This document shows positions 27,271 through 30,303 of a stretch of DNA of 64,000 bases, piece by piece. This stretch comes from Escherichia coli (GTDB lineage Bacteria; Pseudomonadota; Gammaproteobacteria; Enterobacterales; Enterobacteriaceae). Position numbers and translations under genes: made by a program. The DNA lies in assembly GCF_024502345.1 (NCBI RefSeq), contig NZ_JALDNN010000001.1. The stretch is one strand, 5' to 3'. Each line of letters begins with the position of its first letter. The first letter of the stretch is position 1. The notes under the pieces are model-generated. The model searched no databases, was not told the origin of the DNA, and was given only the letters and a program-made list of their open reading frames with translations.

Positions 27271-27458
27271 TATGGATTGCCTGTAAAGTTCATCGCTTTC
27301 TGCTTTCTATCATCGCAGGAGAAGGCGTAAAAGCAAGCGTTTAGCGACTCTTTATGAAGTCTGAAAAGTGAGGAAATGCTGCGAGTATAACGCTTACTCG
27401 TGAGGATTTATGTTCTGCTGGCAGTTTCGTGATCAACACCTCGCGCCAGGATGGCTTT

Positions 27459-28937
27459 ATGCACTATCGCAATGTGGTTTGTTTGTTGGCTTGTTCATTG
27501 TTCTTATCGTCGGCATGGGGATGTCGGCTTGATGCACCTGAACATAATATTTACCAGAAACAGGGAAAAGGCGTGGTGTACCTGCGCCCTTATAAAGAAA
27601 CAAATCTTTCTCTACCTGACGTGAATTACAAGAGTTTGCGCCGTTTACCCAATTTATTAATAGACCCAACAACACAAGATGAATGGACTAAAGAACCACC
27701 TCTGACTGATCTAACAACCGACTACCTCTATGAAGGCGCACAAGCCTGGTATCCTCATTACTCCTGGCATAGCGATGGCCGCAATATCCTCTACGCGGGT
27801 GAAGTTGTGCAAAACCCGCCAGACAAACCTCCCGTCGATGTCGCCTCGTTCAAGGCATGAGGTGATTTTGCCGCAGATAAACACAGTCTCTATTTCGAAG
27901 GCAAGCGCACTGATGACAATGGTGGGGGAAATAGCGTAGATATCAAAACACTGCATCAGGTGGAATTCCGGCCTCCCTGGGATCCTGACTTACTGGGGCT
28001 GATATTACGTGACGCTAATTTCTTATATGTCGATGGGCATCGCCTCGCTGACCCCGAGAGTTTCCGTGTGCTGGCACAAAAGTCATGGGATCAAAGAGGA
28101 AAGTTTTCTACCGCGTTTAATCCCTGTGTGGCTATGCCATTTGGCCCCTGGGATACCCTGGCTCGTACAAGAACCAAAATCCTGATCAACGGCGAACAGC
28201 TTGATGCCGACCCGGACACTTTTTCCGTCGTGCGCTGGATGCCCGGCTCACTCTTGACCTGGCGTGATAAAAACGGGCTGCAGCGTAAAGTCCTCGACAA
28301 GGAAAATCTGGCGTGGGATGAAGATTTAACAAAGCACTGTCTGGATTTTTCTCTGCTGGAAAAGAAAGTGTTCTGGCGTCAGGGGCCTGACTGTAAACAG
28401 GAAGAATTACCGGGACTCGATCCGGAACAGTTTCACCCCATCAGTGATGCTGTCGCACAGTATCAGGACTCGCTTTATACCATCATCGAAACAGAGTCTG
28501 GTGACCGCAAGCTGGAGATCGTGAAACTTGATGATCCCAATCTTATTATCAACAAACGTTTCAACGCCGGGAAACGCCACGGCTATTTACTTACGCGTGC
28601 CGAAGGGTGGCCATACCATTCCGGTTTACACGTGTTTGAATCTGACGGACCGCTGATCTTACTGGATAACCGCTCTCCGGATGAACGCGAAGCCCATCTT
28701 AATGACCATCCCTTTTTGCGCAGATGGTATGCCCGCGATAACCGCTACGTTTACAGCTTTGATGGCGCGCAGCTCTGGCGATACCGCACCGCTGATCCGA
28801 AACAAGTTCGCTTAATCTGGAAGGAACAACATTCGGGATATGGCTACGGGGTAAATTACAAAACGGGATATCTGGACGGAAAAATTACCGATGACGGCGA
28901 ATTTATTCCTGCCCCGCGCAATGAGGCGACAAAATGA
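27459..28937 (+). pseudogene. Secreted repeat protein with DKNYY-like motifs, paralog 1, interrupted by in-frame TGA at 27858-27860 (would be about 492 aa if read through)
   Basis: ORFs 27429-27860 and 27960-28937 are in the same frame, separated only by TGA; region across the stop aligns with paralog 2 (VDVASFKA*GDFAADKHSLYFEGKRT vs VDIASFQAMGRFAVDKYSLYFDGQRT); N-terminal signal peptide. Confidence 0.6.
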
Positions 28938-30256
28938 AGGGTCAAATAATCACAGTTGCACTCATCCTGTTGGGGCACACATGTCTGACACCTGCTGTAC
29001 AGGCCATAGGGTTCGACTATTACAATGATCACGGTGTTATGTCTTACGGTAAAGGTTATGGGGAGGATGAGAAAATCATTGCCCAATTTCCGAAGATGAA
29101 CAGAGCCGATTTGCGCCTTGTGACAAATATATCCGGGGAGCGGGAGTTAGTGGAAGGCTATATACCCACTGATGAAATAAGCATAAAAAATGAGGAATAC
29201 TACTGGGTGACAGACGGCCGCGTTATTCTCTGGCGTGGCAAAATCGTTAGCAATCCACCGGGAATACCCACTGTCGATATTGCCAGCTTTCAGGCTATGG
29301 GCCGCTTCGCGGTCGATAAATATAGCCTCTATTTTGATGGACAGCGCACCGAAAGTAATAGCGGCGCGTCACGTGTTGATCTGGCGACACTAAAAGCTAT
29401 CGAAGGTAACTCTACCACGCTGGTGGATAGTAAAAATCTCTATTTGTCCGGTCGACGTCAGGGGAGCAGCAGTAATGTTACTGTATTAGAAAAAAGATGG
29501 TGGGGTATTAATCCACGTCTTATGAGTGTAAACAGAAATTTGTATTCCAATGATCTGCTTATCCGCAGTGGGCAGAATATTTATTTAAATGGCGTTCACC
29601 TTACGGCGAATGCAGACTCATTTGAGATAATTCGCTGGATACCTCATTCACTGCTGGTTTTTCGCGACAACAATGGTCTGCATCGTTATCCCTTTGGGCA
29701 ATTATCTGGCAAAGCGATACCCGTAGATGATGACGTCTCTTTTGAAGTGGGGGAAAGTCGCGTTCGCTGGCGTAAACAGCTCTCGCCCGACCGTCAGTGG
29801 AGCAAGTGGATAGACCTACCGGATATTGAACCTGAACAATTTCATCTGATTACTGGCAATATTGCGCAGTATAAAGATCGTCTGTATGTAACAAAATTAT
29901 CGACTTTTGGTGAAGACCAGCTTGAAATAATTCCGCTGGATTCGCCAGACCTGGTCATTGATAACTCATTTAATGGCGGCAAACAACATGTTTACTTTAT
30001 CCGCCAATTACGGTCAAAGAGCGTGCAAATTATTCCAGTTAACGGCCCGCTAATTAAAAACGATCGCTTCGCTTATGACGATCGCAATGTTTATACCTGG
30101 ACCGATACAGAGGTCAGGATTACGCCATCCCCCTGTCCGGCGAAAACACGCGTCAGAGAAGAGAATGTGCGTGAACTTCACAACAGAGACATTATTATTC
30201 CGTTGACGGATGAATCATGCCAGAACGCAGCAGACGAGCAAACTTTGAAGCCCTGA
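28934..30256 (+). CDS. Secreted repeat protein with DKNYY-like motifs, paralog 2 (440 aa), start overlaps paralog 1 stop (ATGA)
   Basis: Signal peptide MKGQIITVALILLGHTCLTPAVQA; recurring D-x-x-hY-x-x-G ... ADxxSF motifs (DKYSLYFDG, KNLYLSG, QNIYLNGVHLTANADSFEII, DDRNVYTW); about 45 percent identity with paralog 1 by eye. Confidence 0.65.
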   Translation: MKGQIITVALILLGHTCLTPAVQAIGFDYYNDHGVMSYGKGYGEDEKIIAQFPKMNRADLRLVTNISGERELVEGYIPTDEISIKNEEYYWVTDGRVILWRGKIVSNPPGIPTVDIASFQAMGRFAVDKYSLYFDGQRTESNSGASRVDLATLKAIEGNSTTLVDSKNLYLSGRRQGSSSNVTVLEKRWWGINPRLMSVNRNLYSNDLLIRSGQNIYLNGVHLTANADSFEIIRWIPHSLLVFRDNNGLHRYPFGQLSGKAIPVDDDVSFEVGESRVRWRKQLSPDRQWSKWIDLPDIEPEQFHLITGNIAQYKDRLYVTKLSTFGEDQLEIIPLDSPDLVIDNSFNGGKQHVYFIRQLRSKSVQIIPVNGPLIKNDRFAYDDRNVYTWTDTEVRITPSPCPAKTRVREENVRELHNRDIIIPLTDESCQNAADEQTLKP

Positions 30257-30303
30257 CCCCATGCCGCTATACTGCCGCCATCACTTAAAAACAGGGTACA
30301 ACA

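Follow-up and report, generated by a model that had tools for sequence, protein, structure and literature searches.

How is a gap of about 3 kb to be understood that, in one Escherichia coli chromosome, lies between lptM (yifL) and cyaY and is filled by two plus-strand reading frames, and what might the encoded proteins do? The analysed stretch, hereafter the window, comprises 64,000 nucleotides of contig NZ_JALDNN010000001.1, and the two reading frames, here termed gene 1 and gene 2, encode paralogous proteins related to the DKNYY family (PF13644). The obtained results showed that the locus is ancestral at the lptM–cyaY site, that the short spacer of E. coli K-12 is a derived, deleted state, and that gene 1 of this genome is a recent, lineage-private pseudogene. 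With somewhat better than even confidence, we read the locus as specifying a dispensable, non-enzymatic envelope binding pair that is translationally coupled, ancestral to the Enterobacteriaceae at this site, repeatedly lost, and half dead in this genome. The features of the locus, with the basis of each assignment, are as follows.

27067–27270, minus strand: lptM (yifL), left flank; open reading frame (ORF) list, and RefSeq gives the identical protein, WP_000799889, as LptM.
27271–27458, no strand: divergent intergenic region between lptM and gene 1; alignment of 13 intergenic regions.
27459–28937, plus strand: gene 1, lipoprotein-type DKNYY-like paralog, a pseudogene in the window; translation, and the intact 502-residue E. 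coli allele.
27459–27524, plus strand: predicted gene 1 signal peptide, ending in AWG followed by Cys; hydropathy and the conserved Cys.
27858–27860, plus strand: in-frame TGA in gene 1; TGG (Trp) in intact E. coli alleles.
28934–28937, plus strand: ATGA start/stop overlap of gene 1 and gene 2; ORF list.
28934–30256, plus strand: gene 2, soluble periplasmic-type DKNYY-like paralog, intact, 440 residues; ORF.
28934–29005, plus strand: predicted Sec-type signal peptide of gene 2, MKGQIITVALILLGHTCLTPAVQA followed by IG; hydropathy, the VQA pattern at -3/-1, and low predicted local distance difference test (pLDDT) values at residues 1–23.
29204–29662, plus strand: most canonical DKNYY-like repeat core of gene 2, residues 91–243; hhalign and partial PF13644 matches.
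27616–30182, no strand: segment absent from K-12-like E. coli; blastn against K-12 MG1655 and strain NR3736.
30304–30624, plus strand: cyaY, right flank; ORF list.

An earlier annotation of this DNA, the sequence-only reading, had described two co-directional genes overlapping at ATGA between yifL and cyaY, and the reading frames at 27459–28937 and 28934–30256 agree with it. lptM is transcribed divergently from both genes. The same ATGA overlap is annotated at the E. coli and Citrobacter loci, and it implies that gene 1 and gene 2 would be translationally coupled.

The sequence-only reading had also regarded the region as an insertion of about 3 kb relative to K-12. The gene-filled gap is real, but the polarity is the opposite, as K-12 lacks 27616–30182 by deletion. 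Its spacer aligns to window positions 27000–27615 and 30183–30700, with a 2.57-kb deletion between them. What is left of the locus in this scar is the promoter region, some 50 codons from the start of gene 1 and some 24 from the end of gene 2. This remnant is 94–96% identical to the gene ends in the window, and the NCBI annotation pipeline (PGAP) labels it a frameshifted ‘DKNYY family protein’ pseudogene. Strain NR3736 has the same deletion junction. The survey of E. coli genomes by blastn that had been recommended at the outset bore out a variable locus, as at least 80% of the region is present in 1,393 of 5,426 complete E. coli genomes (26%). Three states of the site were distinguished.

State A: lptM, DUF3304 gene, gene 1, gene 2, cyaY; example, E. 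coli Res13-Sevr-PER07-33 (locus L001).
State B: lptM, gene 1, gene 2, cyaY; examples, locus L002, and UTI89 with an added IS1.
State C, the majority: lptM, short pseudogene remnant, cyaY; examples, NR3736 and K-12 MG1655.

Beyond E. coli, the family holds the lptM–cyaY site in at least eight enterobacterial genera. It was found there in Citrobacter, Klebsiella spallanzanii, Escherichia albertii, Escherichia sp., Pseudocitrobacter, Atlantibacter, Phytobacter, Kosakonia (as a remnant) and Salmonella. Copy number differs among the hosts: Atlantibacter hermannii has one gene, Citrobacter sp. FP75 has two, Escherichia sp. MOD1-EC7003 has four units, Phytobacter diazotrophicus retains the family, and Kosakonia sp. 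carries remnants only. In K. spallanzanii (L006:6509–11990), four tandem paralogs lie beside lptM in the order lipoprotein, soluble, soluble and lipoprotein type; cyaY was not found within this 17-kb locus, where genes for a GntR-type regulator, an amidohydrolase and a major facilitator superfamily transporter follow the paralogs. Because both gene ends survive in the K-12 scar and many genera have the family at this position, the short K-12 spacer is the derived state and the occupied site the ancestral one. Compared across these genomes, the locus appears to evolve by duplication, fusion and loss.

Base composition is a property that would fit horizontal acquisition of a 3-kb segment into an originally short yifL–cyaY spacer. 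The comparison with the flanks, which the sequence-only reading had proposed, did find the pair lower, both in G+C (0.46–0.49 against 0.52–0.56) and in G+C at third codon positions (0.45–0.50 against 0.56–0.62), and the genes are absent from most E. coli. Such an acquisition is nevertheless contradicted by the K-12-type spacers, where a single deletion junction lies between a 5' remnant of gene 1 and a 3' remnant of gene 2, and by the shared site across genera, where divergence scales with that of the flanking genes. No integrase, tRNA, insertion sequence (IS) element or target duplication was found at the boundaries of the window locus. Searches for plasmid or phage copies of the family returned mislabelled chromosomal records and one short fragment, and no genuine copy. 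We therefore consider acquisition by insertion highly improbable. The short fragment lies on Salmonella enterica plasmids NZ_CP047533.1 and NZ_LN868946.1 (96 kb and 141 kb); it resembles gene 2 residues 333–430 at 41% identity and adjoins a DUF3021 gene.

Both genes had been taken as intact by the sequence-only reading, which does not hold for gene 1. In the ORF list gene 1 appears as two pieces, 27429–27860 (143 residues) and 27960–28937 (325 residues). Straight-through translation of 27429–28934 gave a single frame of 502 codons with one in-frame TGA at 27858–27860, which is residue 144 of this frame and residue 134 when counted from the ATG at 27459; the stop codon is 28935–28937. That ATG is the likely start, having AGGA 7 nucleotides upstream, while the longest frame begins at GTG 27429; the orthologues begin MHYRN or MQYRN, in line with ATG 27459. 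The closest E. coli allele, that of Res13-Sevr-PER07-33, has TGG at this position and encodes the uninterrupted 502-residue protein WP_000611190, and the Citrobacter orthologue is 75% identical to gene 1. A 61-mer spanning the TGA had no exact match in the 5,426 complete E. coli genomes, whereas 1,114 of them differ from it by one base, which is why gene 1 is a recent and lineage-private pseudogene here. Selenocysteine insertion or programmed read-through at the TGA was considered and rejected, given that every other allele has TGG and the TGA is private. The AlphaFold database contains truncated versions of both gene 1 and gene 2 from Shigella flexneri.

Identifying the family of these proteins can provide insight into their architecture. 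DKNYY-like motifs had been noticed by eye, and this observation is upheld by profile comparison and by a chain of intermediates to canonical members. In the recommended Pfam check, PF13644 was the sole family matched by the window proteins, though at sub-threshold scores: three partial matches cover residues 84–249 of gene 2, with independent E-values of 0.0057, 0.034 and 3.7, and the intact gene 1 allele gave 1.8. Among 21 family members, PF13644 matched 8 at E ≤1e-3 and 14 at E ≤0.1 (best 5.4e-6), and no other Pfam family was matched. Alignment of the family profile with canonical DKNYY repeats by hhalign gave 95.8% probability (E 7e-9) over residues 91–233, with further matches at 89% and 70% in shifted registers within the residue 91–243 region. 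The motifs DKYSLYFDG, DSKNLYLSG, QNIYLNG..ANADSF and DDRNVYTW can be read in the sequence.

The family profile was also searched against 1.84 billion cluster representatives, which gave 129 proteins at E ≤1e-3, of which 34 reached E ≤1e-30. The close matches were Enterobacterales (Salmonella, Klebsiella, Leminorella, Atlantibacter and Limnobaculum), and the distant tail consisted of canonical multi-repeat DKNYY proteins, such as P0080 with seven matched stretches and P0090 with five. Between the two stand lipoproteins (P0038, P0040, P0044 and P0052) in which the same module of ∼420 residues is followed by textbook DKNYY repeats; in P0038 and P0044 these C-terminal repeats have precomputed PF13644 matches at E ≤1e-5. 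NCBI uses the name ‘DKNYY family protein’ for an E. coli protein cluster to which gene 2 is 95% identical. Judged by these profile and motif relationships, the window proteins are divergent members of the DKNYY superfamily. They share with the family the hairpin motif D-K-x-x-h-Y-Y/F-x-G ... A-D-x-x-T/S-F-x-h-h and the exported or lipoprotein context, and RefSeq gives the family name to their orthologues and to the K-12 remnant alike. They differ from it in having degenerate repeats at irregular intervals and a C-terminal half (from about residue 250) that can scarcely be recognised as DKNYY; their subfamily is narrow, mostly confined to Enterobacterales, with its arrangement of lipoprotein and soluble paralogs. 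Two short contigs of metagenome-assembled genomes assigned to Gram-positive hosts also carry family genes: one of Collinsella sp. (L012) has E. coli-like DUF3304, gene 1 and gene 2 at 93–99% identity, and one of Aerococcus sp. (L022) has more distant, enterobacterial-looking genes at 51–58% identity. Binning contamination is the most likely source of both.

A propeller or a repeat solenoid had been expected of the fold, and the models support repeats of all-beta hairpins and not a closed propeller. An AlphaFold2 model of gene 2, built from a 21-sequence alignment, consists of successive all-beta hairpins (pLDDT 81.5; predicted template modelling score, pTM, 0.71). Foldseek comparison of this model with the Protein Data Bank (PDB) returned propeller proteins only, at template modelling (TM) scores of at most 0.19, and in AFDB50 the matches were unannotated enterobacterial relatives only. 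A closed canonical beta-propeller was set aside, as there was no global superposition on solved propellers (TM ≤0.19). Beta-propeller outer-membrane lipoproteins such as BamB are named among the closest known systems, but a closed propeller is unsupported for the window proteins. Neither the family profile nor a canonical DKNYY protein matched any sequence in the PDB, and these searches found no solved structure of any DKNYY protein.

The weak fold matches bear on whether the proteins could be periplasmic enzymes, for instance hydrolases acting on glycans or peptides on a propeller-like scaffold. The top ones include the propeller domains of prolyl oligopeptidases, DPP4-type peptidases and oligogalacturonate lyase, and several Asp, Arg and Lys residues are invariant. 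These residues, however, sit within the repeated structural motif (D-K-x-S-L-Y-F-D-G and the like) and form no unique constellation; neither Pfam nor NCBIfam matched an enzyme family, and no conserved catalytic residues are evident. An enzymatic role is thus quite unlikely.

Export signals provide the next indication of where the proteins would act. Sec signals had been assigned to both products by the sequence-only reading, along with tandem paralogy at about 45% identity. The paralogy is firm, with BLASTP giving E 1e-61, although the identity is 37% over 325 residues; hydropathy does place a hydrophobic export signal at the N-terminus of each product, but the AWG–Cys end of the gene 1 signal suggests a lipoprotein and not a plain Sec substrate. 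The gene 1 signal has an n-region and an h-region, its Cys codon is 27522–27524, and the residue at +2 is Arg. A Cys after the signal is invariant in every gene-1-type homologue, in the contexts AWGC, ALAC, STAC, SQAC, THAC, AQAC and TLAC, and some of these homologues have canonical lipoboxes (LALAC in Salmonella, GALAC in Klebsiella). Because of this invariance and these canonical boxes, the gene 1 product is probably a lipid-anchored lipoprotein, and given the Arg at +2 it would probably be sorted to the outer membrane.

The gene 2 signal, MKGQ / IITVALILLGHTCL / TPAVQA followed by IG, has the n-h-c form with small residues at -3 and -1, and its end is kept as xQA/x in orthologues. The mature protein has one conserved C-terminal Cys pair (C401 and C429), which is consistent with a periplasmic disulfide. 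From these features the gene 2 product looks like a soluble, Sec-exported protein of the periplasm.

The combination of a lipoprotein-type and a soluble-type protein recurs at three independent loci: lptM–cyaY in Escherichia and Citrobacter, cycA–ytfE in Salmonella, and a locus adjacent to hda in Leminorella (P0028/P0029). The cycA–ytfE pair, found in most Salmonella, has the gene order reverse of that in Escherichia; in S. enterica CP039503.1 (L024:5847–8389) a soluble-type gene of 379 residues is followed by a lipoprotein-type gene of 462 residues, and 2,366 blocks of the searched collection list the 462-residue protein. Natural fusions of ∼665–670 residues, consisting of a full gene 1 type and the C-terminal half (∼180 residues) of a gene 2 type, occupy the lptM–cyaY site in some Salmonella, in E. 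albertii, in Pseudocitrobacter vendiensis and in one more enterobacterium. The fusion genes at this site are located as follows.

L026:7001–9013
L019:4674–6725
L018:4674–6728
L008:8001–9995

In L008 a PAP2 phosphatase gene lies after the fusion gene. Since the pair recurs at three loci and natural fusions exist, the arrangement suggests that the lipoprotein and soluble types may work together. Lipoprotein-type genes also occur singly, which makes this form the apparent core member, as far as gene content can indicate.

The position next to lptM raises a further possibility, namely that the proteins are accessory factors of outer-membrane or lipopolysaccharide biogenesis linked to the divergent gene. 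LptM is a maturation chaperone of the LptD translocon. At least eight genera keep the head-to-head arrangement and share an intergenic region that is conserved in part, its lptM-proximal half across genera, and gene 1 would be a probable outer-membrane lipoprotein, like LptM, LptE and BamB–E. A TCTGAAAAG box lies at window 27350–27372, about 95 nucleotides upstream of the gene 1 ATG; each of the 13 intergenic regions compared conserves it, the duplicated copy in L001 included. The promoter scan of the intergenic region found no consensus sigma-70 promoter. A sigma-E promoter was dropped, given that by eye the conserved TCTGA has no matching -35 element upstream. A biogenesis role linked to lptM is nonetheless very unlikely: strains without the genes are viable and make up about 74% of complete E. 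coli genomes, K-12 among them, Salmonella (cycA–ytfE) and Leminorella (hda/autotransporter) have pairs at sites other than lptM, and inherited synteny alone can account for the adjacency.

In state A, the intergenic region also contains a further gene. In Res13-Sevr-PER07-33 (L001:1851–3103) a DUF3304 gene is inserted between lptM and gene 1, and the cassette is flanked by a direct repeat of ∼180 bp that is made up of the region upstream of gene 1 together with the first 21 gene 1 codons and corresponds to window ∼27350–27520. The full cassette was found in 1,117 complete E. coli genomes, about 80% of those keeping the DKNYY pair. The alleles in the window are 98.8% identical to state A and 90.9% to state B, yet the DUF3304 gene is missing. 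The window matches L001 twice, with 27000–27520 aligning to L001 1501–2021 and 27350–30700 to L001 2933–6286, and it follows the left repeat copy to ∼27410 and the right copy thereafter. Because of this switch and the state A identity, the simplest reading is that the intergenic region of the window is a recombinant of the two repeat copies, the cassette having presumably been lost by recombination between them.

The DUF3304 domain belongs to Tli1 immunity proteins, which counter Tle1 phospholipases of type VI secretion systems (T6SS) (PMC13133936). The DUF3304 protein has a weak match to the NCBIfam model Tli1a, and another E. coli locus (L027), a VgrG-DUF4123-DUF3304-Tle1-VgrG cluster, contains a homologue with 77% DNA identity. 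From this relationship the DUF3304 gene is a putative orphan immunity gene parked beside the DKNYY pair in one allele class. As predicted for the DKNYY proteins, Tli1/DUF3304 immunity lipoproteins face the periplasm and belong to a small locus, the gene lying directly upstream of gene 1 in carriers. In contrast, there is no sequence or fold relation between the two, the window lacks DUF3304, and the locus has no Tle1 effector.

The ratio of nonsynonymous to synonymous substitution rates (dN/dS) was used to assess the constraint on these genes. It was 0.10–0.13 against the Citrobacter orthologues (0.10 for gene 1) and 0.07–0.45 among E. coli alleles of the DKNYY genes; the neighbouring dapF, cyaY and lptM gave 0.01–0.06. 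The family of gene 1 and gene 2 is under purifying selection. Between E. coli allele classes (the window against L001 and L002), synonymous divergence (dS) was 0.25–0.28 in cyaY and 0.06 in dapF, and in gene 1 it reached 0.48 within E. coli. The unusually high value in cyaY, together with that of gene 1, suggests deep allelic lineages or imported segments that span the DKNYY genes and cyaY. In the window, cyaA is 99.5% identical to K-12, which places this DNA in the E. coli/Shigella lineage. Rfam matches elsewhere in the window, the GlmZ small RNA (37749–37955), a four-tRNA cluster (41588–42021) and the TrxA 5'-untranslated-region thermometer (58606–58705), are ordinary features of this chromosomal region.

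Taken with the cassette, the allelic divergence invites the view that the pair acts as orphan immunity proteins or decoys, guarding the periplasm from toxins that enter it, such as T6SS effectors or colicin-like proteins, and is kept as part of a small ‘immunity islet’. The receptor/decoy pair that the sequence-only reading had suggested is speculation. Both proteins are predicted to reside in the periplasm or envelope, a gene for the Tli1 immunity domain lies directly upstream in the 1,117 genomes noted above, with its homologue inside an effector cluster, and tandem arrays, birth-and-death turnover and deep allelic divergence are typical of conflict genes. The neighbourhoods speak otherwise, as no effector, VgrG, PAAR, Rhs or toxin gene adjoins the DKNYY genes in more than 12 loci examined. 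The proteins are large for immunity proteins (440–500 residues), no PADLOC or NCBIfam immunity model matched them, dN/dS below 0.5 gives no sign of positive selection over the whole gene, and the DUF3304 link is limited to one E. coli allele class that arose from a cassette insertion with duplicated flanks. We regard an immunity or decoy role as unlikely. A related proposal, which we hold to be improbable to nearly the same degree, is that the pair forms an envelope-protection module in which an outer-membrane-anchored receptor and a soluble partner capture or neutralise toxins acting in the periplasm, such as T6SS effectors or bacteriocins. If true, it would account for the birth-and-death pattern, for allelic lineages that run deep and for an orphan DUF3304 gene beside the pair in most E. 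coli carriers.

What remains as the favoured reading is the non-enzymatic envelope binding pair, for which a binding scaffold is the most likely role, given the absent catalytic signatures and the repeat architecture. The earlier statement that no function has been characterised still stands: neither protein had a meaningful match in NCBIfam, PADLOC or PHROGs, the PDB sequence searches supplied none, and literature searches on DKNYY, PF13644 and the RefSeq protein accessions turned up no account of a function. The gene neighbourhoods of distant relatives consist of housekeeping genes and were uninformative. Several observations weigh against the favoured reading, in addition to this lack of functional annotation. 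The direct Pfam scores of both window proteins are below significance, and the internal repeats are weakly self-similar (E 0.0016). The gene 1 lipobox, A-W-G-C, departs from the pattern [LVI][ASTVI][GAS]C at -3 and -2. An AlphaFold2 model of mature gene 1 joined by a glycine-serine linker to mature gene 2, from eight paired sequences, reached a pTM of 0.54 and a pLDDT of 69, which lends a heteromer no support, and the pair is not obligatory, as a lone lipoprotein-type gene occurs in Atlantibacter and Limnobaculum.

Under the binding-pair reading, the gene 1 product would be exported and lipid-anchored at the invariant Cys, probably in the outer membrane, and the gene 2 product would be exported by Sec and released into the periplasm. 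Both would fold as all-beta arrays of degenerate DxxxhYhxG...ADxxTF hairpin repeats and may act in non-enzymatic binding in the periplasm as an anchored and soluble heteromer. In this genome the system is decaying: gene 1 has been killed by the private Trp-to-TGA mutation, the neighbouring DUF3304 cassette has presumably been lost via the ∼180-bp repeats, and the soluble paralog, gene 2, alone remains intact.

The DKNYY proteins of this family are not known to have been studied, partly as K-12 holds only a scar of the locus. Nevertheless, one or more lipoprotein and soluble pairs are kept under purifying selection in about one quarter of complete E. coli, in most Salmonella and in several other enterobacteria. 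The new elements here are the polarity of the event, with a deletion in K-12, the gene 1 pseudogene, the recurrent two-partner architecture, and the finding that no DKNYY structure has been solved. On present evidence this is an ordinary accessory locus; a protective or envelope-assembly role, if true, would make it a fitness factor that varies among strains of pathogenic lineages.

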